From Candidatus Saccharimonadota bacterium (GTDB taxonomy: Bacteria; Patescibacteriota; Saccharimonadia; Saccharimonadales; SLHW01): DNA of 64,000 bases. Shown piece after piece: positions 13,785 to 40,884 of the stretch. Under the pieces are notes generated by a model that saw only the letters and a program-made list of their open reading frames with translations, did not search any database and was not told the origin of the DNA. The stretch lies in contig JBJHDA010000001.1 in the NCBI GenBank assembly GCA_050486305.1, forward strand, positions 307,071 to 371,070, written 5' to 3'. The position numbers and the translations under genes are program-made. The stretch's first letter is position 1; the number at the start of each line of letters is the position of its first letter.

Positions 13785-14996
13785 TCACTCGCGGAACTGG
13801 GCTTGTACACCAGGCGTTCGCGGCCAGGCAATAAAATATCGGTGGGTATTATAGAATATCGACATACTAATACACGCAATTACGACGACAATACCAACAC
13901 TCCGTGCAAAAGGATTTTTCGGAAAAACAGTAAACCACTGCTGAAGTAATAGGGCGAGACCTGTCGCAGCAATGATATATACAAAAGGCACAAGTGCGAA
14001 TGAAGTTATAGGGCCACCGAGGCCTGCTAATAACATGAGTAGTGCCATCGTCACGAACAATACTTTTGTTCTATCCAGACTCCTCTGGTAATAGTAGCTG
14101 TAGCAACCAAGGAAGAACAGTACAGTTACAAAGATATCGATGATACCTGCAGTGCCAATCCATAAAACCGGATTGTCAGGCCCCCACGCAAAGAGCTCTA
14201 TCGGAACATTTGCGAGATTTATAGCGTATTCACGAATACTGGGTAAATCACCACCTGGTAATCCTAGCCACGACAAGAGCACGTTGGTTTCAAGAGCAAA
14301 CGTAAAGGCGAGCAACCCAGCAAATAAAAACGCCAATGAGCCAGACACCACTAGAGTGATAGTACTGAGAGACTGAATGGCCTTCTTTATCTGTTTAAAA
14401 TAAATAAGCCCGAGTGTTAATATGATCCATATTATGCCAGGGGTATAAAGGGTTAACACTACACCAAAAGCTGCTGCAATAACCTTGAGCGAAGTTGAAC
14501 TTCTATCCTTACTGTATAACGCTATAGCGATTAAAGCTGGAACGAGCAGGTACATCGAGAGCACATCGCCGAGTCGGGCAATATGTAAAAAGCCTGCGCT
14601 TGAAACGTAGAGGCAAGTCGCGAATAACGAGACCCGTAACGTGTGCCATCGAGAAATTATGTAAAAAACTGCGATTGCACTCAAGAATCCAAGCGATACA
14701 CTGATGAGGCGAATAAATACGGGGTTATCGATAGAGAAAATCTGCAGAACATACAACCCGAAAGTAAAAGGCAGGAAAAGCGGATCCTGGGTTATCGTTT
14801 GTACGATACTAATTTCACGGTTTTCAATTAACTGGTAATTAGCAGCTTCTTGAGGGCTTAAGCCCGGGACAAGAGAGCCGAGCTGGTAGGTAAGCAGTGT
14901 GATGCTGATGATCGCGCCTAGTCCGATCAATAAGATTGGCGGCCAATTATCAATCAGCGCAGTCGGAATACGTTTTAGCCAGGTTTTTTTCTTCAT
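13785..14996 (-). CDS. Polytopic membrane protein (~11-12 TM); a GT-C-like glycosyltransferase is possible but unproven
   Basis: 403 aa, hydrophobic throughout. It is embedded between dnaB and ybaB. Confidence 0.6.
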   Translation of the reverse strand: MKKKTWLKRIPTALIDNWPPILLIGLGAIISITLLTYQLGSLVPGLSPQEAANYQLIENREISIVQTITQDPLFLPFTFGLYVLQIFSIDNPVFIRLISVSLGFLSAIAVFYIISRWHTLRVSLFATCLYVSSAGFLHIARLGDVLSMYLLVPALIAIALYSKDRSSTSLKVIAAAFGVVLTLYTPGIIWIILTLGLIYFKQIKKAIQSLSTITLVVSGSLAFLFAGLLAFTFALETNVLLSWLGLPGGDLPSIREYAINLANVPIELFAWGPDNPVLWIGTAGIIDIFVTVLFFLGCYSYYYQRSLDRTKVLFVTMALLMLLAGLGGPITSFALVPFVYIIAATGLALLLQQWFTVFPKNPFARSVGIVVVIACISMSIFYNTHRYFIAWPRTPGVQAQFRE

Positions 14997-18053: not shown

Positions 18054-18569
18054 CTAGAGTGCGGCCTCAAGCGCTGCCCATTCTGCGCTTGTATCGTCTT
18101 CTGGGACGTTAACACTCACCTGATCACCAGGCTTGGCCTTGAAGTATGTCACACTCGCGAGTAGTACGCGGTACATTTTATCTCCGACTTCTACGAAGTA
18201 GTGACCGTTTTCTAACTTAAGCGTTCCGACAATTTGTTTTCGTGGGATTGGGCCGATTTGCTTATAAAGGAATGCTCCATCATCAGCGATGGTAAGTTTT
18301 AAGATATCACCTTGGACAAGCTTCGACTTGCTAGCGTAGTTTGCTGGCACTGGATATGTCTTGCCGTCAGAGCCGACCATGTTTTGCCCGTCAAACACAC
18401 CTTCGATAATTTTGCCAATGTTCTCATCAGAAGCAGTCGGTGCACTCACATGCTCATCATCATCGCCTACAAGACTAACAAGCAGCTCTTTGGCAGCGGC
18501 TAAATTTGTCTCTGCTTCGGTAATTAATGACTTTAATCGTTTGATTTGTTTATCTGGTACATCGGCCAT
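18054..18569 (-). CDS. Hypothetical protein (171 aa): N-terminal helix plus two beta-rich segments
   Basis: ORF with GAGG 11 nt upstream and its own TTGACA-17-TAACTT promoter. No family recognised. Confidence 0.6.
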   Translation of the reverse strand: MADVPDKQIKRLKSLITEAETNLAAAKELLVSLVGDDDEHVSAPTASDENIGKIIEGVFDGQNMVGSDGKTYPVPANYASKSKLVQGDILKLTIADDGAFLYKQIGPIPRKQIVGTLKLENGHYFVEVGDKMYRVLLASVTYFKAKPGDQVSVNVPEDDTSAEWAALEAAL

Positions 18570-18745: not shown

Positions 18746-19126
18746 TTACGCAAGTTCAACTGTAGCGCCAGCTTCTTCAAGCGTCTTTTTGGCGGTTTCA
18801 GCATCTTCTTTTGCAGCCTTTTCAAGCACTGGCTTTGGTGCTTCGTCGACAATAGCTTTCGCCTCGCCAAGCCCAAGACCGGTAATGTCTTTTACGGCCT
18901 TAATTACAGCGACTTTTTGTGAACCAGCGTCCTTTAGTACGACGTCGTATTCGCTCTTCTCGTCTGCTTCAGCGCCGTTGTCGCCACCAGCTGCCGGACC
19001 GGCAACGACTGCTGCAGCTGCAGCTGGTTCGATGCCGTACTCATCCTTCAGTATGGTCTTTAGCTCGTTCACTTCTAGAACGGTAAGACCGGTTAATTCT
19101 TTTGCTAATTTCTTAAGATCTGCCAT
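18746..19126 (-). CDS. rplL: Ribosomal protein L7/L12
   Basis: Conserved N- and C-terminal domains with an Ala/Pro hinge ([14 protein letters not shown]). Confidence 0.97.
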
Positions 19127-19147
19127 CTTATTATCCTTTCTTATTTA

Positions 19148-19672
19148 CTAACTCGTTGCTTTCGCTTCAATACCATCGAGTAATCCATGCAAGTTGCCCG
19201 CCAAACCGCTCAACACACCATCAACAGGTGATTGAAGTGTTGCAAGCACAGAGGCAATGAGTTCCGGCTTGCTCGGCAGGTTAGCTAATTCTGTAACTTT
19301 CTCTGCTGACAGGAATGTGCCATCTTCTGCAATCGCTCCAACAAAACTGAGTGTTGGCTGTTTCTTAGCAAAGTCAGCGATTGTTTTCGCAGGCGCGACC
19401 TCATCTTCATTATTGAAAGCATATAGCAACATTCCTTCAAGCGCGCTTGTGTCTGTGTCTTTTAGCGGATCAACAGTAGCAACGGCTTTTTTAACAAGGC
19501 GGTTCTTTACAACTTTCAGTGTTGTGCCTGTTTCTGCGCCCTGACGACGCAATTCCTGCATTGCCTTTACTGGTGTACCTTGGTACGTGGCGATAACCGT
19601 AAGTCTCGAATCTTTTAGTAGCGACGCTACTTCTTCGATTACTTGCTTCTTCTTATCTTTCGTTAGTGCCAT
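19148..19672 (-). CDS. rplJ: Ribosomal protein L10
   Basis: Conserved L10 sequence in its position upstream of rplL. Confidence 0.95.
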   Translation of the reverse strand: MALTKDKKKQVIEEVASLLKDSRLTVIATYQGTPVKAMQELRRQGAETGTTLKVVKNRLVKKAVATVDPLKDTDTSALEGMLLYAFNNEDEVAPAKTIADFAKKQPTLSFVGAIAEDGTFLSAEKVTELANLPSKPELIASVLATLQSPVDGVLSGLAGNLHGLLDGIEAKATS

Positions 19673-19876
19673 GTAGTAATACCATTTATTTATTATACGT
19701 TTGTGACTGCTTCGTTATCGACCGTTCCATTTGTTTACGAAGCGGTTACCATGAAAAAAGCTCCTTAGTGGTTACCAAGAAGCTTTCATGTGCTCAAAAA
19801 ACAATACTATCTGCTTTATTGCACCTCGGTGACAAATTAAGTCCAAACTATTCGGACGGTCACGGTCTTTGGTAAC
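19673..19876 (-). promoter_or_regulatory. Candidate rplJ (L10) leader, ~200 nt, containing a terminator-like attenuator hairpin
   Basis: Lies between the promoter at 19883-19911 and the rplJ ATG. The hairpin at 19758-19766/19777-19785 is a 9-bp stem with one G-U valid only on the minus strand, followed by a T run. Confidence 0.4.
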
Positions 19877-19882
19877 TGAGTT

Positions 19883-19911
19883 ATTCTACCCCATTATTTT
19901 CGTAAATTCAA
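19883..19911 (-). promoter_or_regulatory. Promoter TTGAAT-17-TAGAAT driving rplJL
   Basis: Read on the minus strand, starting 2 nt after the stop of the 390-aa ORF. Confidence 0.5.
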
Positions 19912-19912
19912 C

Positions 19913-21085
19913 CTATTGCGCTATCTGGCCTGCAATCTCGTTCTGTTCTGCCGCTAACACATCTTTTGTGGCACGCGCTTTCTGTATCTTTGAGACCAAT
20001 CGATTCTTAAAGCACTTTGGTTTTTTATATGTTTCGATGTAGATTACTTCTGCTGTTTCAGCAAGAGCGACTGACCCTGTGTGCTGGGCAAGTCGTAGCT
20101 GAATGTCAGCGTACGCTTCTGTAATTCGAGTATCCTTGGAGATTGAAAAACTTTCAAAGTAACCATGTAACATGTCAAGCGCTTTCTCTGTTTGCCCCTG
20201 TTCGGTGAGCCAGTCGACTAAACTCCTTATCTCTTCATGATCCTGTCTAGCGTCAATGCTTGGGTAAGTTCCCGCAAGCTTTTGTAGCATCGTTATGGCT
20301 TTTTCTCTATCATCTGTCTCGATCGCCTGTTTGTAACGACCAAAGACATCAAGCATCTCTCTTCCGCTGCCTGAATCGTAAACAGTCGTAACTAGTAAGT
20401 GTTTCCGGTCAAATGGCGCTTGAGTTCTTTGTTCACGATAGTGATGGTTTTGATTCTTTGCGTATACCAGCCATGGGTGCCTTGCGGACAAATCACCGTG
20501 TTTTTCTCCAAGCTCATCGCTAAAAATCGAAGTATTAAGCATAAACGCACCTCGGCCATTATTGTCAACTTGCTCTACCAGTCGGGACATACTTGTGCGC
20601 TGGATACTTTTGCCCATTTCGTGGTTAAGGTGCGGCATCAGCGGGTCAATAAAATGAACACCATTATTTGTTTCAGTGTTTGGTGGAAGCAGTATGAAGG
20701 CATGAGGTAAAGGCCCACCCGCGTAACCTATCCAGTGTTTTACGCCTACTTGGTCAAGAACCTCAGACGTAATGTAGGCATAGCCATAGCAGTTAGCCGC
20801 CTGTACGCCCAGCTCGTCTAAGGTCACTGGTTCGGGTATGCCTAAAGCCTCAAAGTCATTACGATTACCCTCGACTTCTGGATACCAGAGCGCCCTGTGT
20901 ACTTCATGCGCAATTGCAGCCGTAGCTTCTACTGACTTCTCTTGGTAGTTTCTGGCATCGGTTTGTTGTGCGTGCGATAAGCTTTCTGTCAGCTGCTCTA
21001 CATTAAGTACTTCTAGGAGCGGTCTCGAACCAGATTCAGGCTGGGTTTTGTTTGGATGTGGTGTAATCAATTGTTCTGAGATCAT
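19913..21085 (-). CDS. Hypothetical protein: predicted transglutaminase-like (papain-fold) Cys-His-Asp domain plus a C-terminal helical repeat region
   Basis: AANC99YGYA...PLPH128AFILL...VHFID147P. The spacing C-29-H-19-D matches the transglutaminase-core pattern. The C-terminal ~140 aa are helical and TPR-like. Confidence 0.6.
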   Translation of the reverse strand: MISEQLITPHPNKTQPESGSRPLLEVLNVEQLTESLSHAQQTDARNYQEKSVEATAAIAHEVHRALWYPEVEGNRNDFEALGIPEPVTLDELGVQAANCYGYAYITSEVLDQVGVKHWIGYAGGPLPHAFILLPPNTETNNGVHFIDPLMPHLNHEMGKSIQRTSMSRLVEQVDNNGRGAFMLNTSIFSDELGEKHGDLSARHPWLVYAKNQNHHYREQRTQAPFDRKHLLVTTVYDSGSGREMLDVFGRYKQAIETDDREKAITMLQKLAGTYPSIDARQDHEEIRSLVDWLTEQGQTEKALDMLHGYFESFSISKDTRITEAYADIQLRLAQHTGSVALAETAEVIYIETYKKPKCFKNRLVSKIQKARATKDVLAAEQNEIAGQIAQ

Positions 21086-21122
21086 AGTTATATATTGTTT
21101 TTACATTTACCTTAGAGGTATT

Positions 21123-21476
21123 TTACGCAGCTTTAGTGGCACTGAATTCCTGGGCTTGATTGCCCCTCAAATCCCCACTATGCTTGAACTCGGATGTTTC
21201 TTCTATGCTCTCGACTACTAGAGACTCGGCTCGAGTTACGAGTGCTCCGACTTGTATCCCTAAACTTTCTGTAGCCTTAGTTATGTCTTCCGTCGAAACA
21301 GCAATGTCTTGATACTCAGCAACTCCCGTATGCTTCGTTCGCAGTGATACCTCCCCTGAGCTCATAGCATTCGCTGCAACCTGCCTACCAAGTAGTTGCG
21401 CACACCTTTCTTGTGCTGCCTGCTTCATCTCTGTTTGTCTTAATGATTCTCTAGCGTACTGTGACGGTGATTCCAT
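21123..21476 (-). CDS. Hypothetical protein (117 aa), first gene of the two-gene operon with the transglutaminase-like protein
   Basis: AGAGGAA ribosome-binding site 5 nt upstream. There is a 37-nt gap to the downstream ORF. No family recognised. Confidence 0.55.
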   Translation of the reverse strand: MESPSQYARESLRQTEMKQAAQERCAQLLGRQVAANAMSSGEVSLRTKHTGVAEYQDIAVSTEDITKATESLGIQVGALVTRAESLVVESIEETSEFKHSGDLRGNQAQEFSATKAA

Positions 21477-21537
21477 TATAAGTTCCTCTTTTTTGGTTTA
21501 AACTTATGCTTGCAAAATAAAAATGCTTCTCCCTTTG

Positions 21538-21601
21538 TGGTTGAAGCCTGGTGTCGGTTATCGGACTATGTTTTGTTTACTTTTCAGCGGCTTCAACCAC
21601 A
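21538..21601. repeat. Perfect 12-bp inverted repeat GTGGTTGAAGCC/GGCTTCAACCAC with a 40-nt spacer
   Basis: Read directly from the sequence. It lies in the predicted leader of the 117-aa ORF. Confidence 0.6.
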
Positions 21602-21675
21602 TCGAAACATAGCCCTAAGCGGACTAGAATAATGTTTACGATGTAGAAGCCTGAGTAGTTCATAACTTATCCGAC

Positions 21676-21725
21676 AATATAGCACGTGTAAGAAATTTGA
21701 CAAGCACAACGTTACCGTGTACATT
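21676..21725. promoter_or_regulatory. Back-to-back promoters with overlapping -35 hexamers
   Basis: Plus strand: TTGACA (21697-21702)-17-TACATT (21720-21725). Minus strand: TTGTCA (21703-21698)-16-TATATT (21681-21676). Confidence 0.4.
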
Positions 21726-21906
21726 TGTTTTTGGTATGAATCAATTGAATCTAGCAATTCGAAACATCTGCATCAAGCCAATTATGGTCGGCTTTGTGTA
21801 TGTGCGGACGAATTAGCTGGAGCAATTTCATACATCATCAACTCAAGTAATTTTGAAAAACAAAAGCTCCAGCAAATCGCCGGAGTTTTTTTAAGGACAA
21901 AAGTAC

Positions 21907-21935
21907 TTGACAACAATTGAACAATAACGTATAAT
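21907..21935 (+). promoter_or_regulatory. Perfect consensus sigma-70 promoter TTGACA-17-TATAAT for the 169-aa ORF
   Basis: Exact hexamers and spacing, 20 nt upstream of ATG 21956, with AAGGGA as the ribosome-binding site. Confidence 0.65.
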
Positions 21936-21955
21936 AAGTTACAATAAGGGATGTT

Positions 21956-22465
21956 ATGTCCGAGCTTATCAGCAGACCAGAACTAGAAGTTCCTACCTTT
22001 CGTGACAGAGTAAAAGGCATATTTAAAGCTAACCTAATAAAAAGTGAAGTTTTGGTAGAGCCGGTTGAGCATAAGCAGTCAGCAGAAGACCTAAAAGAAA
22101 AAGCTCGTAGGCGACTTGAGCTGTTTAAGCAAAACCCTGAAGCTGCGGCTGAAAGATTCGGCAGGCGCATTGCGCAAGAGTTCGATAACTTTAGCAATGA
22201 CCTCACCGACAGCTTTAATGCATACTTCGTTATTTCATCTGAGTTGCATTACGAATCTGACGCTGCACAGATGCATCGATTATCACATAAATATTTTGCT
22301 GATTCGTTCGGACTTACAGCCGAGGAGGTTCTAGCTCGTGATACGGGGAATGGACAGAAGCACACGATCATAGCGAAAAACGGCGCGGAACTTCAGGTAC
22401 AGTTTAACCGCTATGAAGAAGGGGCTCCGCCTTCTGGCATAATGTACCGCGGCGTAAAGCACTAG
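21956..22465 (+). CDS. Hypothetical protein (169 aa)
   Basis: ORF behind a consensus promoter and ribosome-binding site. No family recognised. Confidence 0.6.
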   Translation: MSELISRPELEVPTFRDRVKGIFKANLIKSEVLVEPVEHKQSAEDLKEKARRRLELFKQNPEAAAERFGRRIAQEFDNFSNDLTDSFNAYFVISSELHYESDAAQMHRLSHKYFADSFGLTAEEVLARDTGNGQKHTIIAKNGAELQVQFNRYEEGAPPSGIMYRGVKH

Positions 22466-22471
22466 TATAAG

Positions 22472-22502
22472 GTCTGGAATCGTAATATTCCTATTGCCAG
22501 AC
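22472..22502. terminator. Hairpin GTCTGG/CCAGAC between convergent genes (no U tract)
   Basis: 6-bp stem with a 19-nt loop in the 42-nt convergent gap. Confidence 0.25.
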
Positions 22503-22507
22503 GGTAG

Positions 22508-24844
22508 TTACGAAAGCTTTTCTAGTTTGTACTGCGAGTAGCGCTCTGCCGCAAGCCGGGTAAGCTCAGGGTCTTCATCTTCACTGACAAACTGCATTGC
22601 TTCTGCAGTCAGCGGGTGAACCTCGGCCAGCTTCCGATGCATCTCACCGACTAGCTTCCGGTACCCTGGATGACCCTGAGGTGTTGTCCTGAGCTCATGA
22701 AGATGAAACGCCTGCCGGGCATTGTAGGTAATAGTCCAGCGCATCTTATGGCCAAGGAGTGTGGCATACTGAGCTTCATAGCCATATCCGGCGGCCTGCA
22801 GCTCGCCATAAAGCTCGACAGATATACCAAAACACCTTTCAAAGAGGTCGGTTAGCCCAGCATCTTCAACGATTTGCGGTATGTCAAACCCGTAGCGAGG
22901 GGTAAGTTGCTGCCAAGTTAAATTGTCTACCATACGGTGCCGCTGTAGGTCACGAAAAATGCCATAGTCGCATATAAGATCCCATGTGTAATGAGGTATC
23001 TCTAGCGCTCGGCCGGGACGATGCCGGCGATTGAGGCGCTCTCCCATGTATGCACGAAAAGCATCAATCTTTTTGTCAATTGTCCAGTCGTCCACTTGTG
23101 TCTCAATATCCCTGAGTGACATTGAAGAGTGCTCATACAGCATGTATGGAACTGTGTCGAGCTCGTTTCTTGGGGAATAGCTTCGCAGTACGACAGATGC
23201 TTCGTCCGACTTGCCATATGACTCGTTTAAATTTTCTTTTGCAAACTCTTTAATTGCGTCTCGAGTGTTGGCTAAGTAGGCAGTCGTTGCGCCACCGCGC
23301 TCGGGCTTGTCGGCGCGCTCCAAGAACGTTGGAATAATCTTCCTGGTCTCTTTCAGGATTGCGTTCCCGGTTTCACGAGCTTCTTGGCTTTCGCTGGCGC
23401 GCAAACGCATAATCATACTTTCGATTGCTTGGCCACTTCCGTATATCCCAACCGTTGCCTTTGTAGCCACTGGTAATACGGGACGAATCGCATCACATGC
23501 TTGTGCTCGGGTTGCGGCTTTCCATGCTCCATCTTGCTCTTTTTTTGGTACGGTTGAGGATTTTCGAATATAATCGGTAGCCTTGTGGACCATCTCAGAG
23601 TACAGGTCAAAAATATCGTCCATTTTCTGCTGGTAATTTCGCTTTGTTTTTGCGTCGAATTGTTCAGGAACCACGTACTTATACCTACCGTCTTTATCCT
23701 TTTGGTCAAAGTAAATATAACGAGTTGATTGCTCTAAATATGAGGCTAGCCTTCCCCACTCTAGTTGCTTTGTTAGAAGATTGCTGGCATTCTCTACTAC
23801 AAAATGTGCCCCAACGAGCTGTTGGACGGAGTCATCACCGTAGGCTGATATGACGCGTTGCAGCAATTTCTCATCTTTGCCATGGGATGTAGCGAATTCA
23901 TCAAGGATTGTGACGCGCATGTCGTCACCCCGACGGCTAAGACGGGCCATGCCGGCCGCTACGGTTAGTGTGCTCAGCCATGTCTTAAAGGCGTATACAT
24001 TAGACGTGGTGTCGGTAATTGATTTCTCTAAAAACTCGATACCTTCGCGAGTAATATGCCAGTTATTGTCTATCTTTTTGATGTATGGATTCTTTGCTGT
24101 TGGGTTTTTTATCTTTTTTGTCATTGTGTCGCCCCCTTTTTCATTCTCTATTGTAGGTAAAAGTGGATATATTGATTCCCACACAAGATTTGATATGTCG
24201 TCTACGCTCATCAGTGCATCACTGCGAGCGCAATCGATACGTGTAAAATCTTTCGGAAACAGCTGGCAAAGGTCATCATACACCTGTAGTGAGCGGCTAA
24301 TGTGGCTCTCGTCTGCCTCGTGAATGTCACGCTGTTTATCGGTATAGGTACGTTTGCCGCGTTCGCCCATTTGTTTTCTTGACACCTCTAAAGGCACCCG
24401 AAGCACGATAGATCGGTCTGGCCGGGGTATGCCCAGCATCTCGAACTCAAGATTATCGAGCCATATAAAGTAACCGCGTCGTTCTTCACTGCTTGAAAAT
24501 TTTGTGCCTTGATGTGCCATGTTTGACCCCGTGTAACGGTCAGCTAACACGACCTTTCCAGCCTCAAGCGCGTCACGTATCTTAGAGGAAGCTTCAAACC
24601 TGTCTAGCGCGTAAAATAAAGAGCCGGTGTACGGACCAACTTCATCTGCACTTCCATAGACACCGTTTAGATATTGAGTTACAAAATAACTAGAGGGCGA
24701 GTCATACTGCGGGAATTTGAAGGTTTCTACTTCATATCCTTCTTGCGTCAAGCGTTCGTGCAGTCTTGTAAACTGTGTGCTTTTGCCAGAACCGTCGGTT
24801 CCTTCTATTACAAAAAAAGCTCCAGGGTACGCTTTTTGGTGCAT
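22508..24844 (-). CDS. tmk/thyX: Fusion protein: thymidylate kinase (aa ~1-228) plus two tandem ThyX (flavin-dependent thymidylate synthase) domains (aa ~280-505 and ~555-745)
   Basis: Tmk P-loop FFVIEGTDGSGKST with DRY and lid regions. ThyX copy 1 has WGR-LASYLEQ-STRY and AIRPVLPVA. ThyX copy 2 has RHR-x10-TPRY and ARQAFHLHELR. Confidence 0.85.
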   Translation of the reverse strand: MHQKAYPGAFFVIEGTDGSGKSTQFTRLHERLTQEGYEVETFKFPQYDSPSSYFVTQYLNGVYGSADEVGPYTGSLFYALDRFEASSKIRDALEAGKVVLADRYTGSNMAHQGTKFSSSEERRGYFIWLDNLEFEMLGIPRPDRSIVLRVPLEVSRKQMGERGKRTYTDKQRDIHEADESHISRSLQVYDDLCQLFPKDFTRIDCARSDALMSVDDISNLVWESIYPLLPTIENEKGGDTMTKKIKNPTAKNPYIKKIDNNWHITREGIEFLEKSITDTTSNVYAFKTWLSTLTVAAGMARLSRRGDDMRVTILDEFATSHGKDEKLLQRVISAYGDDSVQQLVGAHFVVENASNLLTKQLEWGRLASYLEQSTRYIYFDQKDKDGRYKYVVPEQFDAKTKRNYQQKMDDIFDLYSEMVHKATDYIRKSSTVPKKEQDGAWKAATRAQACDAIRPVLPVATKATVGIYGSGQAIESMIMRLRASESQEARETGNAILKETRKIIPTFLERADKPERGGATTAYLANTRDAIKEFAKENLNESYGKSDEASVVLRSYSPRNELDTVPYMLYEHSSMSLRDIETQVDDWTIDKKIDAFRAYMGERLNRRHRPGRALEIPHYTWDLICDYGIFRDLQRHRMVDNLTWQQLTPRYGFDIPQIVEDAGLTDLFERCFGISVELYGELQAAGYGYEAQYATLLGHKMRWTITYNARQAFHLHELRTTPQGHPGYRKLVGEMHRKLAEVHPLTAEAMQFVSEDEDPELTRLAAERYSQYKLEKLS

Positions 24845-24846
24845 CG

Positions 24847-25563
24847 TTACAGATCTTTCACGTTTAAAGGTTTTCGTCGCTCGTCTTTGTACGCACGAGG
24901 CAGCATTTGCTCGGGGCGCCAGTCGCGTACCAGCATCTTTACATCCTTGCTGGTATCTGTTTGGTATTTGCCGCTGATGCTCTTGTATTCACCGTCGACA
25001 GGCCCTGTATGATAAAACACAAGCTGTGCTATTCTTTCGCCTACTGGCAAGACAACACTTTCGTGCTGATTCATGTTGTAAATCTCCATTGTCCAACGAT
25101 TTATGTAGCCCGGGTCACCCCAACCGGCGTCCAGGCATACTGCTACCCCGTTTCTCCCCCAAGTACTACGGGCCTGCATTGTGCTTGTTCCCGGTGCTTT
25201 TATGCCGATAAATTCGTGCGTATGGGCTAATATTCTTTCTCCGGGTTGGATGACGATAATTGGGTGGTCTGGCGGTATGCCGTCAAAAAGCTTTCGGTCG
25301 TTTTCGTCTGCCCAAATCTCGTGGAGCTCTGCGTGGTGCGGACCATCAAAATATCGACCAACGTCTTTTTCATCAAACGGATTATAAAAACCACTGCTGA
25401 TTTTACGTTCTGTTCGGTAGTACCAATAACCAAGCGTTACGTCGACGCTGCTCCCGGCAATGTGCTCATCTATGTACGGGTGGAATACGATGTGGCCACG
25501 CGCGATAGCATCGCGGATTTCTCGGTTGCTATACACTCCTTTTTTTTGCGAATCTTCGATCAC
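24847..25563 (-). CDS. dcd: dCTP deaminase family protein (long form, 238 aa)
   Basis: SSVDVTLG and ARSTWGRNGV...DAGWGDPGYINRWTMEIYN align to the Dcd/dUTPase-fold core. GTG start. The stop lies 2 nt from the tmk/thyX start. Confidence 0.8.
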   Translation of the reverse strand: MIEDSQKKGVYSNREIRDAIARGHIVFHPYIDEHIAGSSVDVTLGYWYYRTERKISSGFYNPFDEKDVGRYFDGPHHAELHEIWADENDRKLFDGIPPDHPIIVIQPGERILAHTHEFIGIKAPGTSTMQARSTWGRNGVAVCLDAGWGDPGYINRWTMEIYNMNQHESVVLPVGERIAQLVFYHTGPVDGEYKSISGKYQTDTSKDVKMLVRDWRPEQMLPRAYKDERRKPLNVKDL

Positions 25564-25640
25564 CCTTTTGTTTCCCCATATATTATTGACACCAGTGTAC
25601 TGTGGTGGCTAGAAATCATGCAAGCATAAGCCTCGAGCAA

Positions 25641-26405
25641 TTATTCTTGCGGTGCCTGAGATGTCTGATAGAGAACCTGCAGACGATTATTCTTTATATC
25701 CTCTAATATTTGCTTGGCACACCGTTTTACATCATCAACTGTCCCATTGCTCATTACTGTACAGTCAACATTAATATTATCGCGCTCCCTCTCTGTCGGG
25801 TCGAGCATGTCATTCTGTAGGTGTCCTGGGCGATAAACTTTGATAATTATACCGCCGGCGTGCCGAATTGCCGCAGCATCGCTTGGAAATCTAAGCCCGC
25901 CTACAATGCAGAGCTTACAGCCAGTTGTTGCAGAGTCATATACCATTCGAGTGACCTCGCGGAACCAAATTCCCGGGTCAACCTTTTTTATGAGATAGCC
26001 GCCAAGCCATTGTAGGAATGGACGGTATGTTTCTTTATTTTCAAGGGTAATTCCCTGCTGTGCAAGCTCTGGGTTACGATGCAGATTCTCAACATGCATG
26101 ATGAGCTTCTGGTATTCGATAGGGTGCTGCTCAATTGAAGCAGGGTCAAGCCTAATCTGCTCGAACGTACATTCGGCATGAACCGTCTCAGAGAGTATTC
26201 CAGGTAATGCATGCAGCCATGAATTGAGCGACTCTACGTCATAAGGATCGGGCAGCTCACGCAGAGAAGCATGCATAGCGTTTGCGACGCGAGCAATAAC
26301 AAGACTCGATTCCAGGTGAATAGTATGAGGCTCTAGCTCCATCAGCGCATTGGCAAACGTTGTTTTGCCATGACTAATTGGGCCAGTCATGCCAAGCAAA
26401 ATCAT
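25641..26405 (-). CDS. P-loop NTPase, dNMP-kinase-like (nucleotide kinase, substrate unknown)
   Basis: Walker A GMTGPISHGKTT. The C-terminal GGLRFPSDAAAIRHAGGIIIKVYRP resembles the deoxynucleotide monophosphate kinase motif. Confidence 0.6.
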   Translation of the reverse strand: MILLGMTGPISHGKTTFANALMELEPHTIHLESSLVIARVANAMHASLRELPDPYDVESLNSWLHALPGILSETVHAECTFEQIRLDPASIEQHPIEYQKLIMHVENLHRNPELAQQGITLENKETYRPFLQWLGGYLIKKVDPGIWFREVTRMVYDSATTGCKLCIVGGLRFPSDAAAIRHAGGIIIKVYRPGHLQNDMLDPTERERDNINVDCTVMSNGTVDDVKRCAKQILEDIKNNRLQVLYQTSQAPQE

Positions 26406-26445
26406 AAGCGTAGTGTATCAGCTCTGTAGGGTTTACACTAGTGTT

Positions 26446-27432
26446 CTAGGCAGCGAGTTCTGATGATTGAACAAGGATGCTCGGCCCCATACTTGTCGTT
26501 ACATAGATACTTTTAACGAATGAGCCTTTTAAGCTGCTGGGCTTGTTTGATTTAATGCTTCGTAACAATTCTGTGGCATTGTTAAGCACTTTGTCTTCGC
26601 CAAAGCTGACTTTTCCAATTGGCGCGTGAATGATTCCCGATTCATCAACACGGTACTCAATTTTACCGGCTTTTGCCTCCTTGACCGCTTTTTCAATGTC
26701 ATTTGTTACCGTACCGCTCTTCGGGTTTGGCATTAACCCTTTCGGGCCGAGAATACGAGCATATTTACTAAGTTTTGGCATCATGCTCGGGGTTGCAATC
26801 AGTATGTCGAACGCGATAGACCCTTTTTCCAGTTCCTGTAAAAGCTTGTCTTCTCCTGCGATGTCAGCACCAGCTTTTTTTGCTGTATTGGCATCTTCAG
26901 CATCCGCAAAAACACCGACACGGACAGTCTTGCCTGTACCTGATGGCAGAACGATAGAATCCCTGATATTCTGATCAGCTTGCCGAGGATCAACATTCAA
27001 TCTTGCGTGTAGCTCGACAGTAGCATCAAAAGAAACATGGCTTGTGCTTACAGCTAAAGCGATCGCCTCTTTTAGGTCATATGCTTTCCCTTTTTCGATT
27101 TTCTTGGCTGACTCTTTATACCCTTTTGCACGACGTTCACTTCTCGGTCGAGTGGGGTTTTGTTTCTGCTTAGGCTTCTCTACAGACTTTTCAGCTGATT
27201 GCTTTCTCGCTTCTTTTTCCTCTAGTTCTTTTTCTTCACGAAGAGCTTTTGCGCTCCGCTTTCCAGCTTTTGCAACAGCTGTCTTGCTATCATTTTCCGG
27301 CTTCTCGTCCGCATTTTTGCTTGCGGCAGCATTTTTTATCGCTTCGTTGATTTCTTTTACTGTATTCTTTTCAGAAACATCAAGCTTTAGCGCTTTCGCT
27401 TCACTTAAGAGTTCGGCTTTCGTTTTAGCCAT
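26446..27432 (-). CDS. rplA: Ribosomal protein L1 with a ~105-aa Lys/Glu-rich N-terminal extension
   Basis: Conserved L1 core from about aa 110. The start is set at the ATG with AAGGAG 7 nt upstream (MAKTKAEL). Confidence 0.93.
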   Translation of the reverse strand: MAKTKAELLSEAKALKLDVSEKNTVKEINEAIKNAAASKNADEKPENDSKTAVAKAGKRSAKALREEKELEEKEARKQSAEKSVEKPKQKQNPTRPRSERRAKGYKESAKKIEKGKAYDLKEAIALAVSTSHVSFDATVELHARLNVDPRQADQNIRDSIVLPSGTGKTVRVGVFADAEDANTAKKAGADIAGEDKLLQELEKGSIAFDILIATPSMMPKLSKYARILGPKGLMPNPKSGTVTNDIEKAVKEAKAGKIEYRVDESGIIHAPIGKVSFGEDKVLNNATELLRSIKSNKPSSLKGSFVKSIYVTTSMGPSILVQSSELAA

Positions 27433-27511
27433 GACTATTCTCCTTTTGTGGTTCAAGCCCTCGGTACATTACCGAGGTCCCACGCATATTATTAATACAA
27501 TTGACTGATAC

Positions 27512-27937
27512 TTACTCTACTTCTACACCCATCGATCGTGCGGTGCCAGCGACCATCTTTTTTACCGATTCGATGTTATCAGTATTCATGTCTTCCGCTT
27601 TTGCTTCTGCAATTTCTTGCAGCTGAGCCTGTGACAGTTTTTTCGTTAGCTTTTCCTTGTTTGGTACTCCAGAACCTTTCTTCTCGCCGATTGCTTTAAG
27701 AATAAGAACATCTGTAGGTGTGCCGACGACCCGCCATGACATTGAACGGTCATCATATATTGAGATATGGACGGTAATGTCTTGCCCCATTTTGTCCTTC
27801 GTTTCTTCATTAAACGGGGTGATGAAGTCCATCATGTTGACGCCGTATTGGCCGAGCGTAGAGCCGACTGGTGGCGCCGCGCTAGCTTGACCGCCACGTA
27901 GTTTCATCTTTAGATTTGCTTTAACCTTCTTTGCCAT
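27512..27937 (-). CDS. rplK: Ribosomal protein L11
   Basis: Conserved sequence (KLRGGQASAAPPVGSTLGQYGVN). Confidence 0.97.
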   Translation of the reverse strand: MAKKVKANLKMKLRGGQASAAPPVGSTLGQYGVNMMDFITPFNEETKDKMGQDITVHISIYDDRSMSWRVVGTPTDVLILKAIGEKKGSGVPNKEKLTKKLSQAQLQEIAEAKAEDMNTDNIESVKKMVAGTARSMGVEVE

Positions 27938-27973
27938 AAAAAATAACTCCTTTGGGAGTGCGTAACTGCGTTA

Positions 27974-28516
27974 CTATACCTTCTTTACCTGTAGTGAGTC
28001 AAGTTCTACCGGTGTTTCACGACCAAACATATTTACAAGTACTTTAAGCTTGCCCTTTGTTTCATCTACCTCGTTAATTGTTCCATCTGTGTCCTTAAAC
28101 GGTCCGTCGACGATGTTGACTACTTCGCCTACCTTAAAGTTCATCTTATATTTCGGCTCTTCTCGCCCCATGCGCTTTAATATTTTGTCTACTTCTTCTT
28201 GTGCTAGCGGTGTCGGCTCTGTACCAGATCCAACGAACCCGGTGACGTTCGGAGTATTCCTGACGATATACCAGGCATCTTCGCTCATCTTCATTTCAAC
28301 GATAACGTAGCCCTGAAAAATCTTCTTTTCAACAACTTTTCGTTTACTGTTTTTTACTTCGATCATTTTCTCTTTCGGTACTAATACCTGGAATATCTTA
28401 TCTTTCATTTCCAAGCTGTCTGCCCGTTGCCTGATGCTCTCTGCGACTTTTTCTTCATAGCCGCTGTAAGTATGGATGGCGTACCATAACTTTTGTGAAT
28501 CATACCGCTTGCTCAT
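27974..28516 (-). CDS. nusG: Transcription antitermination factor NusG
   Basis: NGN domain (WYAIHTYSGYE) plus a KOW domain (GEVVNIVDGPFKD). Confidence 0.95.
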   Translation of the reverse strand: MSKRYDSQKLWYAIHTYSGYEEKVAESIRQRADSLEMKDKIFQVLVPKEKMIEVKNSKRKVVEKKIFQGYVIVEMKMSEDAWYIVRNTPNVTGFVGSGTEPTPLAQEEVDKILKRMGREEPKYKMNFKVGEVVNIVDGPFKDTDGTINEVDETKGKLKVLVNMFGRETPVELDSLQVKKV

Positions 28517-28920
28517 AGTCCTAATATAACCCTTCTAAATACATTATCTAATACATAGTCGATTCCGGCTATCAAGCCGCCAAAGAAAGCAGCGAATAGC
28601 AGTACTGCTATTGTTAACCGAAACGTTTCTGACCTGTTTGGCCAGGTAACACCCTTTACTTCATTCCAGGCATTTCGAATCATTCCCGGCATAAGTGATC
28701 GACGCTTGTTTAGCTTTCCTACAAAGCCCTTATCTGGGAGGGGCAAATAGTATTCTTTACCGCCTTTTTTGGCGAGCCTAGTCTTTGCTCCGCCAACTTT
28801 CGACTTCACCTGTTTGATTCGACGTGGCTTTTTCGCAGCATCATTTGTTCCGCGTTCAACCTTATCACGAATCGTCTCTTGTTTCTTTATAACTCGACGC
28901 TTGCTCTTTTTTTCAGCCAT
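28513..28920 (-). CDS. secE: Preprotein translocase subunit SecE with a basic N-terminal extension
   Basis: C-terminal VKGVTWPNRSE plus a TM helix. The start is set at the ATG with AGGAG 7 nt upstream (alternative upstream ATG at 28956). Confidence 0.85.
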   Translation of the reverse strand: MAEKKSKRRVIKKQETIRDKVERGTNDAAKKPRRIKQVKSKVGGAKTRLAKKGGKEYYLPLPDKGFVGKLNKRRSLMPGMIRNAWNEVKGVTWPNRSETFRLTIAVLLFAAFFGGLIAGIDYVLDNVFRRVILGL

Positions 28921-29093
28921 CGGTTTCTCCTGCCTCTTCTTGGCCTTATAAGCCATTTAAAAAAGCCTAACTATACGTAGGCTTCCAAGCAAGTCAACTA
29001 TACTACTTCGTGCCCCTTGTGGTCAAGCAGTTTTATCGCAAAGCTTGTTCATTATATCGAGGCTGGATAATGTAAATGGTATAGAATAGAAAC

Positions 29094-32523: not shown

Positions 32524-33195
32524 TTAACGGATTTTTATATTTCTTCTTCGCTCTGTGTCAACGCGGCCGGCACGCGGGTTCGGAATGAGGTTAACTAGCC
32601 CAGGCTTAACGAGCCCGAGTTTTGATCCGGTAGGTGATTCGACCAATCCTTGACTATAAAGCTTCTTATATACGTTATGTTTTTGTGTCGTGAATGTATG
32701 CTTGCCACTGATGACGACATAGTCCTCTTCCATAGTTGGGTTTTGCATTTGGCTTGAAAGGCTTTCAAACGTTGTGCGGTCAATCGGTGAGGCAAATTTA
32801 TCATCAATTTTACGGCGGTCACGTTTTATCACACGGTTAAACCCACTCTCTGGATCAATCTGTATCCACACTAAAACTGGCGAAAATTTGTATTTCCGCG
32901 CTAGATCGCGAAGTGCACGCCTGTCACGAAGTGTTGGAGTATTTGCATCGTATATAACACTTATCTTGGCGCGCATAAACTCTTCTGTCATGTAGTCCAT
33001 AATATGGTTGACTACATCATTTTCACGGTTGTCATAGCGCGGCTTTTCAAATAGCTCGTGTCGGATACGATCACTGTGCACATGAGCCATACCAAGCTCG
33101 GTAGAAAGATGACGTGCGAATGTTGACTTTCCAGCTCCTGGAAATCCATATAGTAGTACAAGTACCGGCTTAGTTGGTATTGGCTTTCCCATCAC
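32524..33195 (-). CDS. P-loop kinase (AAA_33 / zeta-toxin-like fold)
   Basis: Walker A GFPGAGKST. The small size and layout are typical of this kinase family. Confidence 0.6.
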   Translation of the reverse strand: MMGKPIPTKPVLVLLYGFPGAGKSTFARHLSTELGMAHVHSDRIRHELFEKPRYDNRENDVVNHIMDYMTEEFMRAKISVIYDANTPTLRDRRALRDLARKYKFSPVLVWIQIDPESGFNRVIKRDRRKIDDKFASPIDRTTFESLSSQMQNPTMEEDYVVISGKHTFTTQKHNVYKKLYSQGLVESPTGSKLGLVKPGLVNLIPNPRAGRVDTERRRNIKIR

Positions 33196-36193: not shown

Positions 36194-36781
36194 ATGTCGT
36201 ATATACAAAATATCAGCAACACAAAATCCTCGATCCGCAAGCGTGTGCGCGAAAAGCTTAGCACGTTATCGGAATCCGACTATGCTGCCCATGCGCATAA
36301 GCTATCGATGCATTTAACAGCAACTTCATGGTTTATGCAGGCTAAGCATATAGCGGTATATTTCCCTAAGGATAAAGAAATTGACACACGGCCATTTATT
36401 AAGGCTAGCTGGAATATGAACAAAATACTCTACCTCCCTGTAGTTTCAGCTGATAAAAATAAGCCGATGCCTATCATAAGATATACTCCAGGCACGAAGT
36501 TAGTTGAAGGAGCCTATCAGTTGCTGATACCGCAACACGACGACCGGAGTACGTGCAGCGTAGCTATGCTTGATCTCGTCATTGTACCGTTGGTTGCATT
36601 TGACTCACGATATCATCGGCTAGGAAGAGGGGGTGGGCACTACGACCGGCTGCTATCTGCTTGTAGAGCTACAACAAGGATTATCGGTGTCGCACATAGT
36701 ATGCAAGAGATCGACACCATACCAATAAGCCCTTATGACATTTCGATGAACTCCATAATAACCGAAAAAGGGGTACTGTAA
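36194..36781 (+). CDS. 5-formyltetrahydrofolate cyclo-ligase
   Basis: Family layout and the RLGRGGGHYDRLL motif. Confidence 0.85.
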   Translation: MSYIQNISNTKSSIRKRVREKLSTLSESDYAAHAHKLSMHLTATSWFMQAKHIAVYFPKDKEIDTRPFIKASWNMNKILYLPVVSADKNKPMPIIRYTPGTKLVEGAYQLLIPQHDDRSTCSVAMLDLVIVPLVAFDSRYHRLGRGGGHYDRLLSACRATTRIIGVAHSMQEIDTIPISPYDISMNSIITEKGVL

Positions 36782-40143: not shown

Positions 40144-40884
40144 TTATTTCGTCAGATATACGTCCACAAGCCTGTTTCCGTAGCTGATGTCGTATGGGTC
40201 ATCACCAATATTTCGCTCAGTTGGCGAAAGATGAGTCGAAAGAAGGCTAGACTTAACGTAGCTATGGTCTCTTATACCAATGGAGGGGTTTACTGCTCCT
40301 AAAACCGTTGCGCCAAATATAGCAAGTTGCTGCTTATGAACCCGGTTCCCTCTCTCGTTTCTTTCAACTATTCGTGTCTTCGTGCTCATGAGTCGTTTAT
40401 TCATTTTTTTTAGATCTATACCATGCACTTCATCAACAAGGTGAGTCGCTGCTTGCAGGTGTGACGCTTCATCCATTCCTGGCTCTAGATAATATTCTAT
40501 GTTCACCATAGGCGGACTTTCGCCAGCAATAGAATCACGTACTGCCTGCGCAAAAGCAATCGAACCGATGCCGACCATACGATCCGCTGATAAATACCGA
40601 TATAATCTCGCATGCTCACTTAAAAAAAGGTGCTCGAGGGACTCCGTTTCTCGACGTGTCTTTTCAGGTTCAGACAAGCTATTTAGATCAAGTCCTTGCC
40701 TCGTTACAATCCTGTGCACTCCGGCACCTACGATCCGCTGGTAACGATGTATTGCCTCCTTACCGGCCGATATCTCAATATCAGGATGCTCTGCTTGTGC
40801 CTGAATAAATGTTGCTATTTCCCAGAGATCAGTTTGATTAGCCCGCTCTGCAGTAATATATTGCGTATCCGCCGCTAGACTCAT
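40144..40884 (-). CDS. Hypothetical protein (246 aa)
   Basis: Long ORF with no family recognised. Confidence 0.55.
   Translation of the reverse strand: MSLAADTQYITAERANQTDLWEIATFIQAQAEHPDIEISAGKEAIHRYQRIVGAGVHRIVTRQGLDLNSLSEPEKTRRETESLEHLFLSEHARLYRYLSADRMVGIGSIAFAQAVRDSIAGESPPMVNIEYYLEPGMDEASHLQAATHLVDEVHGIDLKKMNKRLMSTKTRIVERNERGNRVHKQQLAIFGATVLGAVNPSIGIRDHSYVKSSLLSTHLSPTERNIGDDPYDISYGNRLVDVYLTK

Follow-up and report, generated by a model that had tools for sequence, protein, structure and literature searches.

A thymidylate kinase fused to a tandem ThyX with divided catalytic residues in Candidatus Saccharimonadota: a probable bifunctional thymidylate enzyme

Introduction

ThyX, the flavin-dependent thymidylate synthase, is an antibacterial target, and analyses of its active site, which spans subunits, have been confined to symmetric homotetramers. 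This article concerns a protein in which a thymidylate kinase (Tmk) and two ThyX-fold domains are joined in one chain. It is encoded in a 64,000-nucleotide stretch of DNA from a Candidatus Saccharimonadota bacterium (GenBank assembly GCA_050486305.1, contig JBJHDA010000001.1, positions 307,071 to 371,070 of the forward strand). This whole stretch is referred to as the window, and all nucleotide positions given below are counted from its first letter. The full explanation that we favour, at a probability of roughly 0.68, is that of a bifunctional thymidylate enzyme, made of a subfunctionalised tandem ThyX and a Tmk.

In the PolB/ThyX crystal structure, the nucleotide site is assembled from F79, R82, H83, R86 and R193 of one monomer, and from E94′, S96′, A97′, R98′ and R166′ of its neighbour (PMC5003785). 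The substrate deoxyuridine monophosphate (dUMP) is contacted by ThyX residues R78, R80, S88 and R90 (PMC3498832), R174 activates dUMP, and S88, R90 and Y91 assist methylene transfer (PMC8316439). A further residue, His53, stacks on folate or reduced flavin (PMC11940539). Chlamydial ThyX sequences are too divergent for standard phylogenies (PMC6171736). Among fusion proteins, one that joins dihydrofolate reductase to thymidylate synthase (DHFR-TS) and is bifunctional has been described (PMC8104401).

Domain make-up of the fusion protein

The gene and its domains are arranged as follows.

22508..24844, minus strand: tmk-thyX-thyX fusion open reading frame (ORF), 778 amino acids, ATG start, stop codon 22508..22510
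24161..24844, minus strand: thymidylate kinase domain, residues 1-228 (Pfam PF02223, match to Mycobacterium tuberculosis Tmk, structure model)
24059..24160, minus strand: inter-domain linker, approximately residues 229-262 (low column conservation; predicted local distance difference test, pLDDT, below 50 at residues 234-249)
23231..24058, minus strand: ThyX-fold domain 1 (half 1), approximately residues 263-538 (profile, hhalign, tandem model)
22511..23230, minus strand: ThyX-fold domain 2 (half 2), approximately residues 539-778 (profile, hhalign, tandem model)

In the ORF listing of the window the frame is uninterrupted over all 778 amino acids, and a protein identical to it (P0001) is on record from an NCBI contig. 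A first-pass annotation, read from the letters and translated ORFs, had proposed one Tmk followed by two ThyX-fold domains in a single chain. This make-up is borne out by Pfam (PF02223 and PF02511), and the structure model agrees; the residue numbers given at that stage are also all correct (P-loop FFVIEGTDGSGKST at residues 10-23, W363-G-R, S373-T-R-Y, R635-H-R and T648-P-R-Y). A word-indexed homologue search across NCBI, JGI, ENA and Logan assemblies returned 120 full-length homologues of 765-798 amino acids at 65-72% identity, all with PF02223 and PF02511, of which the closest named ones belong to Candidatus Saccharibacteria/Saccharimonadales.

The PF02223 (Thymidylate_kin) match covers residues 13-206 (1.9e-20; 73.8 bits against a cutoff of 27). 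Its translation carries the P-loop G15-T-D-G-S-G-K21-S-T and D102-R103-Y104, and K21 is kept in 120/120 close homologues. Among solved structures, M. tuberculosis Tmk comes closest (1g3u; 7e-18, residues 11-193), and in the full-length model a Tmk-like alternation of strands and helices continues up to residue 228.

The remainder of the chain is matched in two stretches by PF02511 (Thy1; 2.9e-37, 128.8 bits against a cutoff of 24.8). The half-1 profile matches M. tuberculosis ThyX (3gwc; 5e-10) and the half-2 profile matches PBCV-1 ThyX (4fzb; 3.2e-3), while hhalign against Thermotoga maritima ThyX aligns half 1 over residues 6-219 and half 2 over residues 6-215 (E 1.8e-4). With phmmer against the PDB, the whole protein gave Tmk only and half 2 alone gave no match. 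An AF2 model of residues 250-778 (pLDDT 89.2; predicted template-modelling score, pTM, 0.84) comprises two similar alpha/beta units. Foldseek searches of the PDB with this tandem model place single-domain ThyX of M. tuberculosis, T. maritima and PBCV-1, and PolB, at the top (probability 1.00, TMt 0.66-0.72, TMq approximately 0.3), each spanning about half of the model; no solved tandem ThyX structure was among these matches. Against viral models (BFVD), A0A6B7EUB9 (461 amino acids; TMq 0.70) and the Microcystis phage LMM01 'thymidylate synthase' A0A7D4 (491 amino acids; TMq 0.61) match from end to end, which shows that viruses, too, have tandem ThyX-fold proteins.

Division of catalytic residues between the two halves

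Both halves were mapped onto the T. maritima ThyX sequence (219/220 identical to PDB 1kq4), aligned to per-half profiles. This mapping agrees with hidden Markov model alignments to M. tuberculosis and PBCV-1 ThyX. The elements concerned are:

23717..23770, minus strand: half-1 motif K359-Q-L-E-W363-G-R365-L-A-S-Y-L-E371-Q-S373-T-R375-Y376 (M. tuberculosis and T. maritima ThyX alignments)
23483..23485, minus strand: R454 of half 1, equivalent to T. maritima R147, a phosphate-binding Arg on the same monomer as the Ser loop, after PolB R166′
22934..22954, minus strand: half-2 R631-D-L-Q-R635-H636-R637, equivalent to R74...R78-H79-R80 (hhalign)
22670..22723, minus strand: half-2 N708-A-R710...H714...R719...H725, equivalent to N163, R165, N169, R174 and roughly H178 (flavin and uracil contacts)

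Residue by residue, the correspondence is:

T. maritima R74: half 1 K359; half 2 R631
T. maritima Q75: half 1 Q360; half 2 D632
T. maritima R78: half 1 W363; half 2 R635
T. maritima H79: half 1 G364; half 2 H636
T. maritima R80: half 1 R365; half 2 R637
T. maritima E86: half 1 E371; half 2 T643
T. maritima S88: half 1 S373; half 2 deleted
T. maritima G89: half 1 T374; half 2 deleted
T. maritima R90: half 1 R375; half 2 deleted
T. maritima Y91: half 1 Y376; half 2 W644
T. maritima R147: half 1 R454; half 2 Q692
T. maritima N163: half 1 S470; half 2 N708
T. maritima R165: half 1 Q472; half 2 R710
T. maritima R174: half 1 R482 (about 60% conserved; variable in standalone forms); half 2 R719

Neither half holds the full RHRxxSxxxxSxR(Y) signature, which is complete only across both. 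Half 1 reads W-G-R...S...S-T-R-Y, retaining the Glu/Ser/Arg/Tyr substrate loop and carrying W363-G364 in place of Arg-His (R78-H79); half 2 reads R-H-R, and its Ser-Gly-Arg segment is deleted, with four residues missing over T. maritima L87-R90. Every listed residue of the half-1 motif, and the half-2 stretch from N708-A-R710 to H725, is kept in 120/120 homologues; half-2 R631-D-L-Q-R635-H636-R637 is kept in 120/120 as well as in 24/24 representatives of standalone tandem ThyX. R482 excepted, all mapped residues show no or almost no variation among the 120 closest homologues, and they are invariant also in the 24 standalone representatives apart from the R and Y of T648-P-R-Y, an element discussed below. 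The complementary motif degeneration noticed in the first pass thus extends well beyond the signature and is invariant across the clade.

After correction for offset, one PolB residue set is equivalent to R74/Q75/R78/R174 of T. maritima ThyX and the other to its E86/S88/G89/R90/R147. Because half 2 keeps the set of one monomer and half 1 that of the other, each chain probably has one complete catalytic site. The dUMP-contact set over this pocket would consist of R631, R635 and R719 from half 2 and E371, S373, R375 and R454 from half 1, all of which are invariant. From the alignments and by analogy with PolB, we infer that the two sets would meet in three dimensions. The reciprocal pocket lacks R78 and H79 (replaced by W363 and G364), R147 (Q692), a conserved R174 (R482) and the entire Ser-Gly-Arg loop. 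The most economical reading would be that two chains pair to imitate the tetramer, with two of the pockets complete and the other two vestigial. Asymmetric, subfunctionalised sites, as suggested in the first-pass annotation, stand as the best reading, since the PolB structure puts the two retained subsets on different monomers.

Distribution and origin of the tandem core and its fusion

A species-level survey (one genome per species; patterns Y[LI]E[QR]STRY for half 1 and [FY]RDLQRH for half 2) found the tandem ThyX core at no fewer than 598 confirmed loci in species-representative genomes; architecture was counted in the best 80 of these at least 598 loci. In 79 of these 80, a single ORF holds the whole tandem. 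The window protein is a member of this tandem ThyX-ThyX subfamily, with both motifs in one ORF and end-to-end similarity over approximately 510 residues. Tmk and both ThyX halves share one ORF in 39 Saccharibacteria species genomes. In Acidimicrobiia and other Actinomycetota, in Binatia and in Acidobacteriota, 34 genomes carry a standalone tandem ThyX of about 40% identity, and none of the 34 has a tmk closer than 4 kb to the gene. From this distribution of standalone and fused forms, it follows that the tandem core is old and widespread and that the Tmk fusion is lineage-specific; the tandem ThyX is the older of the two and is not confined to the fused form.

The immediate upstream neighbour of the fusion is:

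24847..25563, minus strand: dCTP-deaminase-family gene (dcd), 238 amino acids (PF22769; 4.4e-33, 115 bits against a cutoff of 27)

The 2-nucleotide spacing between dcd and the fusion start, reported in the first pass, is confirmed by a junction that reads TAA-CG-ATG, and the linkage is conserved: dcd lies directly upstream and co-directional in 35/39 fused loci, with only a weak opposite-strand match in a 36th (L039). Among unfused relatives, two loci have a separate tmk directly upstream of the tandem thyX (L040, with the order dcd-tmk-thyXX, and L043, tmk-thyXX), and standalone tandem forms of Patescibacteria have dcd and tmk as neighbours or lie beside L1-L11-NusG-SecE. These gene orders indicate that the fusion arose from the conserved arrangement dcd-tmk-thyXX. 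Adjacent unfused tmk and thyXX in L040, L043 and P0144 are also what would be expected were the fusion an artefact of assembly, frameshift or gene calling that joins neighbouring genes. A frameshifted or chimeric assembly, raised as a caveat in the first pass, is nevertheless ruled out by the open frame, the 120 full-length homologues and the one-ORF fusions of the 39 species genomes; with four data sources contributing over 100 independent clusters that carry the same fusion, the chance of an artefact of any of these kinds is negligible. Nor is the architecture the rarity that it first seemed, being widespread and automatically annotated (for example by JGI as 'thymidylate kinase/thymidylate synthase ThyX'), and in the accessible literature no paper describing a tandem ThyX or a Tmk-ThyX fusion was found.

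Relatives with a decayed ThyX module and other points of doubt

Several observations weigh against a bifunctional thymidylate enzyme. The first comes from the wider family. An exhaustive search gave 1203 proteins at E <= 1e-30 as representatives at 50% identity, and a table of 150 representatives of such clusters was drawn up. As many as 102 of the 150 listed are Tmk fusions without the half-1 E-x-S-x-R and without the half-2 RHR, a decay confirmed by regular expressions and pairwise alignments, and the P-loop K21 of Tmk is present in 102/102. The equivalents of R147 and R174 are replaced as well, and in shorter forms much of half 1 is deleted. In P0122, which is 48% identical to the window protein, LLHFQQ stands for LQRHRM, VTPQTRY for LEQSTRY and SVLQAVLP for DAIRPVLP. 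The decayed set also includes P0123, P0128, P0133 and P0206, and the loci L083-L085; its named members are Candidatus Saccharibacteria/Saccharimonadales or Patescibacteria, and the names given to them range from 'dTMP kinase' and 'hypothetical protein' to 'FAD-dependent thymidylate synthase'. P0206 shares the synteny of the window (SecE-NusG-L11-L1-DCD-[fusion]-L10-L7/L12). A DHFR gene lies beside two decayed fusions, one of which is also beside a dCMP deaminase gene, which hints that ThyX may have been replaced by a ThyA/DHFR route in these lineages. The decayed ThyX-like part looks like a pseudoenzyme module, and evidently, to judge from these sequences, such a module can be kept without catalysis.

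The second point is the absence of His53 from both halves: its position is taken by an invariant D338 (G-D-D-S-V) in half 1 and by P610 in half 2, and folate or flavin handling may differ from that of canonical ThyX. Two family-invariant stretches here have no counterpart in canonical ThyX, namely G-D-D-S-V itself (nucleotides ~23829..23843) and a basic N-R-R-H-(K/R)-P-G-R in half 2 (residues 605-612; nucleotides ~23009..23032). They could be marks of altered folate, NADPH or flavin handling.

The remaining points are statistical. The equivalog cutoffs for dTMP (thymidine monophosphate) kinase are missed by NF005923 (131.4 against 193 bits) and TIGR00041 (66.2 against 83.25 bits), both models of whole single-domain proteins; judged by these scores the Tmk domain is a divergent one. 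TIGR02170 (NCBIfam thyX) likewise stays, at 65.1 bits, under its equivalog cutoff of 87.9. Statistically, the hhalign comparisons of the halves with T. maritima ThyX, a single sequence, are weak (probability 14% and 48%), and a profile-profile comparison of half 1 with half 2 is not significant (probability 0.5%). The case for a duplication is accordingly built on fold and on the Pfam and PDB profiles, not on direct similarity between the halves.

Two alternatives draw on this evidence. The ThyX-like module could be catalytically silent and serve an active Tmk as an appendage with a structural, oligomerising or regulatory function, the cell taking its dTMP from a ThyA or a salvage pathway encoded elsewhere. 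The 102 decayed fusions with their intact K21 and the loss of His53 favour this view. The window protein, however, falls within a clade that keeps every composite-site residue, and all residues of one composite site are invariant in it and its 120 closest homologues, as would not be expected unless catalysis were under selection; the same residue set is kept by the standalone tandem forms with no tmk within 4 kb. We consider a silent module improbable.

Alternatively, the module could be an active flavoenzyme with a variant reaction or partners, such as another pyrimidine C5 modification, activity on UMP like that of PolB, or reliance on some other one-carbon or hydride donor. This would account for the exchange of H53 for an invariant Asp in half 1 and for Pro in half 2, and for the new invariant basic patch of half 2. 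There is precedent in PolB, a ThyX homologue with altered specificity (PMC5003785), and in the direct use of formaldehyde by ThyX (PMC8316439). Against it, the attached Tmk and the conservation of dcd next door argue for conversion of dUMP to dTMP, and all dUMP-contact residues are retained; a variant reaction is thus unlikely, if a little less so than a silent module.

The T648-P-R-Y element

22892..22903, minus strand: T648-P-R-Y651, probably the strand after the deleted Ser-Gly-Arg loop

In the first-pass annotation, T648-P-R-Y was taken as the S-x-R-Y element of half 2 shifted by three residues. It does lie, literally, three residues farther from RHR than S-x-R-Y would sit. Two alignments, independent of each other and both weak, nevertheless put it on the following strand: between the halves, R650-Y-G-F-D-I-P stands opposite R387-Y-K-Y-V-V-P, and between half 2 and T. 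maritima, TPRY stands opposite S95-F98, the strand that follows the loop. The conservation pattern also disagrees with the earlier view. The motif (T/S)-P-R-Y-G-(Y/F) is kept in Tmk-fused proteins with or without ThyX catalytic residues; in the fusions without them, T/S is found in 83/102, P in 73/102 and R in 83/102. Since the element is kept in catalytically dead fusions and its R and Y vary in standalone tandem enzymes, a catalytic role is disfavoured. T648-P-R-Y is probably not a shifted S-x-R-Y, and its distribution suggests a role tied to the Tmk fusion.

The same element bears on the possibility that both types of pocket work, for a total of four sites per dimer, with the non-canonical residues tolerated or compensated. 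Its retention in the fused clade, where it is readable as a displaced S-x-R-Y, and the presence in half 1 of R365 and K359 (equivalents of R80 and R74) could be cited in favour. The residues missing from the reciprocal pocket, together with the variable R and Y of TPRY in standalone enzymes, make four working sites very unlikely.

Returning to the subfunctionalised tandem ThyX, a more far-reaching version is that it is an obligate half-of-sites enzyme, by duplication and strict subfunctionalisation of the two pocket sides, which in Saccharibacteria has acquired a second, non-catalytic, Tmk-linked role marked by TPRYG. Such a role would explain why a ThyX-like pseudoenzyme is retained on Tmk in so many lineages with decayed catalytic residues, seemingly once a ThyA/DHFR route had taken over. 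We put this forward tentatively, and with more doubt than conviction.

Proposed mechanism

In the mechanism that we propose, the N-terminal domain would act as an M. tuberculosis-like Tmk (dTMP + ATP -> dTDP, thymidine diphosphate) and would be joined by a flexible linker of about 30 residues to a tandem flavin-dependent thymidylate synthase (dUMP + methylenetetrahydrofolate, CH2-THF + NADPH -> dTMP). Half 2 would give the RHR/R74/R174 side and most flavin contacts (N163, R165), and half 1 would bring in the equivalent of R147 along with the Glu-x-Ser-x-Arg-Tyr loop. The reciprocal pocket, formed by the W-G-R side of half 1 and the loop-deleted half 2, would be dead, so that a chain dimer would have two sites in place of four. 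The translationally abutted dcd upstream would supply dUTP or dUMP; dcd and the fusion would be co-transcribed and probably translationally coupled, covering dCTP -> dU(T/M)P -> dTMP -> dTDP. Domain content, fold, conservation of residues, distribution and synteny are established by the analysis; we infer both enzymatic activities, the dimeric assembly, the number of active sites and whether the pocket forms within or between chains.

The full-length model has a pLDDT of 78 and a pTM of 0.58, with pLDDT below 50 at residues 234-249 and in the Tmk LID (162-174), and in it the Tmk domain is without confident docking on the ThyX module. The channelling from dUMP through dTMP to dTDP envisaged in the first pass finds no support here, because the Tmk domain appears flexibly tethered; given the disordered linker and the low full-length pTM, a fixed ThyX-to-Tmk channel was set aside. 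The model is consistent with tethering and co-expression instead of a defined channel, and supports nothing beyond proximity. The fusion would mainly enforce 1:1 co-expression and proximity of two consecutive steps.

Genomic neighbourhood

The product of dcd scores 88.5 bits with TIGR02274 (cutoff 92.8), and among its solved relatives are monofunctional as well as dUMP-forming bifunctional enzymes. Other features of the neighbourhood are:

25641..26405, minus strand: P-loop kinase-like gene, 254 amino acids (borderline score for T4-type dNMP kinase, PF21448 DNMK; 8.3e-07, 29.3 bits against a cutoff of 27.1)
21956..22465, plus strand: ORF between L1 and L10 without Pfam match
21123..21476, minus strand: ORF between L1 and L10 without Pfam match
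19913..21085, minus strand: ORF between L1 and L10 without Pfam match

The kinase-like gene lies immediately upstream of dcd, where 9/39 fused loci also have a homologue; it may be a second deoxynucleoside monophosphate kinase and the first gene of the block. SecE, NusG, L11 and L1 flank the fusion upstream and L10 and L7/L12 downstream. This SecE-NusG-L11-L1-L10-L7/L12 cluster (18746..28956, minus strand) is interrupted between L1 and L10 by the kinase-like gene, dcd, the fusion and the three ORFs without Pfam match; in L085, a relative, this gap holds no more than DCD and the fusion. Farther out in the window are DnaB, a clamp loader, RecR, CysS and PBP, and the locus is an ordinary chromosomal housekeeping region. 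The gene for ribosomal protein L1 (26446..27456, minus strand) has a TTG start and encodes 336 amino acids with a Lys/Glu-rich N-terminal extension of about 100 residues; long L1 proteins also occur in relatives (316 amino acids in L001, 335 in L085).

More distant genes of the window are:

36194..36781, plus strand: 5-formyltetrahydrofolate cyclo-ligase (PF01812; 1.6e-41)
32524..33195, minus strand: AAA_33/zeta-toxin-like P-loop kinase, 223 amino acids (PF13671, 1.3e-20; PF06414, 6e-08)
13785..14996, minus strand: ORF of 403 amino acids, no Pfam match at E <= 1e-5
18054..18569, minus strand: ORF of 171 amino acids, no Pfam match at E <= 1e-5
40144..40884, minus strand: ORF of 246 amino acids, no Pfam match at E <= 1e-5

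The predicted cyclo-ligase is consistent with folate use, and ThyX would need CH2-THF. The AAA_33/zeta-toxin-like kinase gene adjoins one for a YgjP-like metallopeptidase.

Implications

If this reading is true, the protein represents a covalent pseudo-dimer, natural and widespread, whose two pocket sides reside in different, separately evolvable domains. It would provide a ready-made heterodimer in which to dissect subunit contributions, half-of-sites behaviour and asymmetry fixed by duplication. Together, the Tmk fusion and its decayed relatives would trace the passage from gene adjacency to fusion to pseudoenzyme in one lineage of ultra-small symbionts. Automatic labels such as 'FAD-dependent thymidylate synthase' and 'dTMP kinase' are unreliable guides to the capacity for de novo dTMP synthesis, which bears on predictions of auxotrophy in Patescibacteria.

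Comparison with described systems

Canonical ThyX/FDTS enzymes (T. maritima TM0449, M. tuberculosis Rv2754c and PBCV-1 A674R) have the same fold as each half of the window protein, and the same inventory of catalytic residues is obtained when the two halves are pooled; the reaction is presumed to be the same. They differ in assembly. The canonical homotetramer has four identical subunits and four FAD-containing sites, whereas the fusion has two non-identical copies per chain and would have two sites per assembly, with no full motif in either copy, no His53 and a Tmk attached.

Closer to the window protein are the standalone tandem ThyX-ThyX proteins of about 525-560 amino acids from Actinomycetota/Acidimicrobiia, Binatia, Acidobacteriota and some Patescibacteria. 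They share the core and its complementary pattern, the cellular ones at 40-55% identity over approximately 510 residues, but have no Tmk domain; their members most closely related to the fusion have tmk and dcd as separate neighbours. None of these standalone proteins, nor of the two-domain phage proteins, was found described in the literature. The ThyX of Chlamydia trachomatis (CT632), which has no Tmk fusion, is reportedly unusually long (~529 amino acids), divergent and active (a report ascribed to Griffin et al., 2005), and is a candidate member of the tandem family. The decayed Tmk fusions (P0122, P0128, P0206) resemble the window protein in the Tmk domain, in sequence at the level of the fold and in the TPRYG motif, yet they have lost the catalytic residues and have a shortened half 1, whereas the window protein keeps all of these residues.

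Finally, the protozoan DHFR-TS likewise joins consecutive steps around dTMP synthesis, as a Rosetta-stone fusion. It differs in the enzymes that are joined, ThyA and DHFR, and in the manner of their joining: a rigid junction and electrostatic channelling are documented for DHFR-TS, whereas the model of the window protein indicates a flexible tether.

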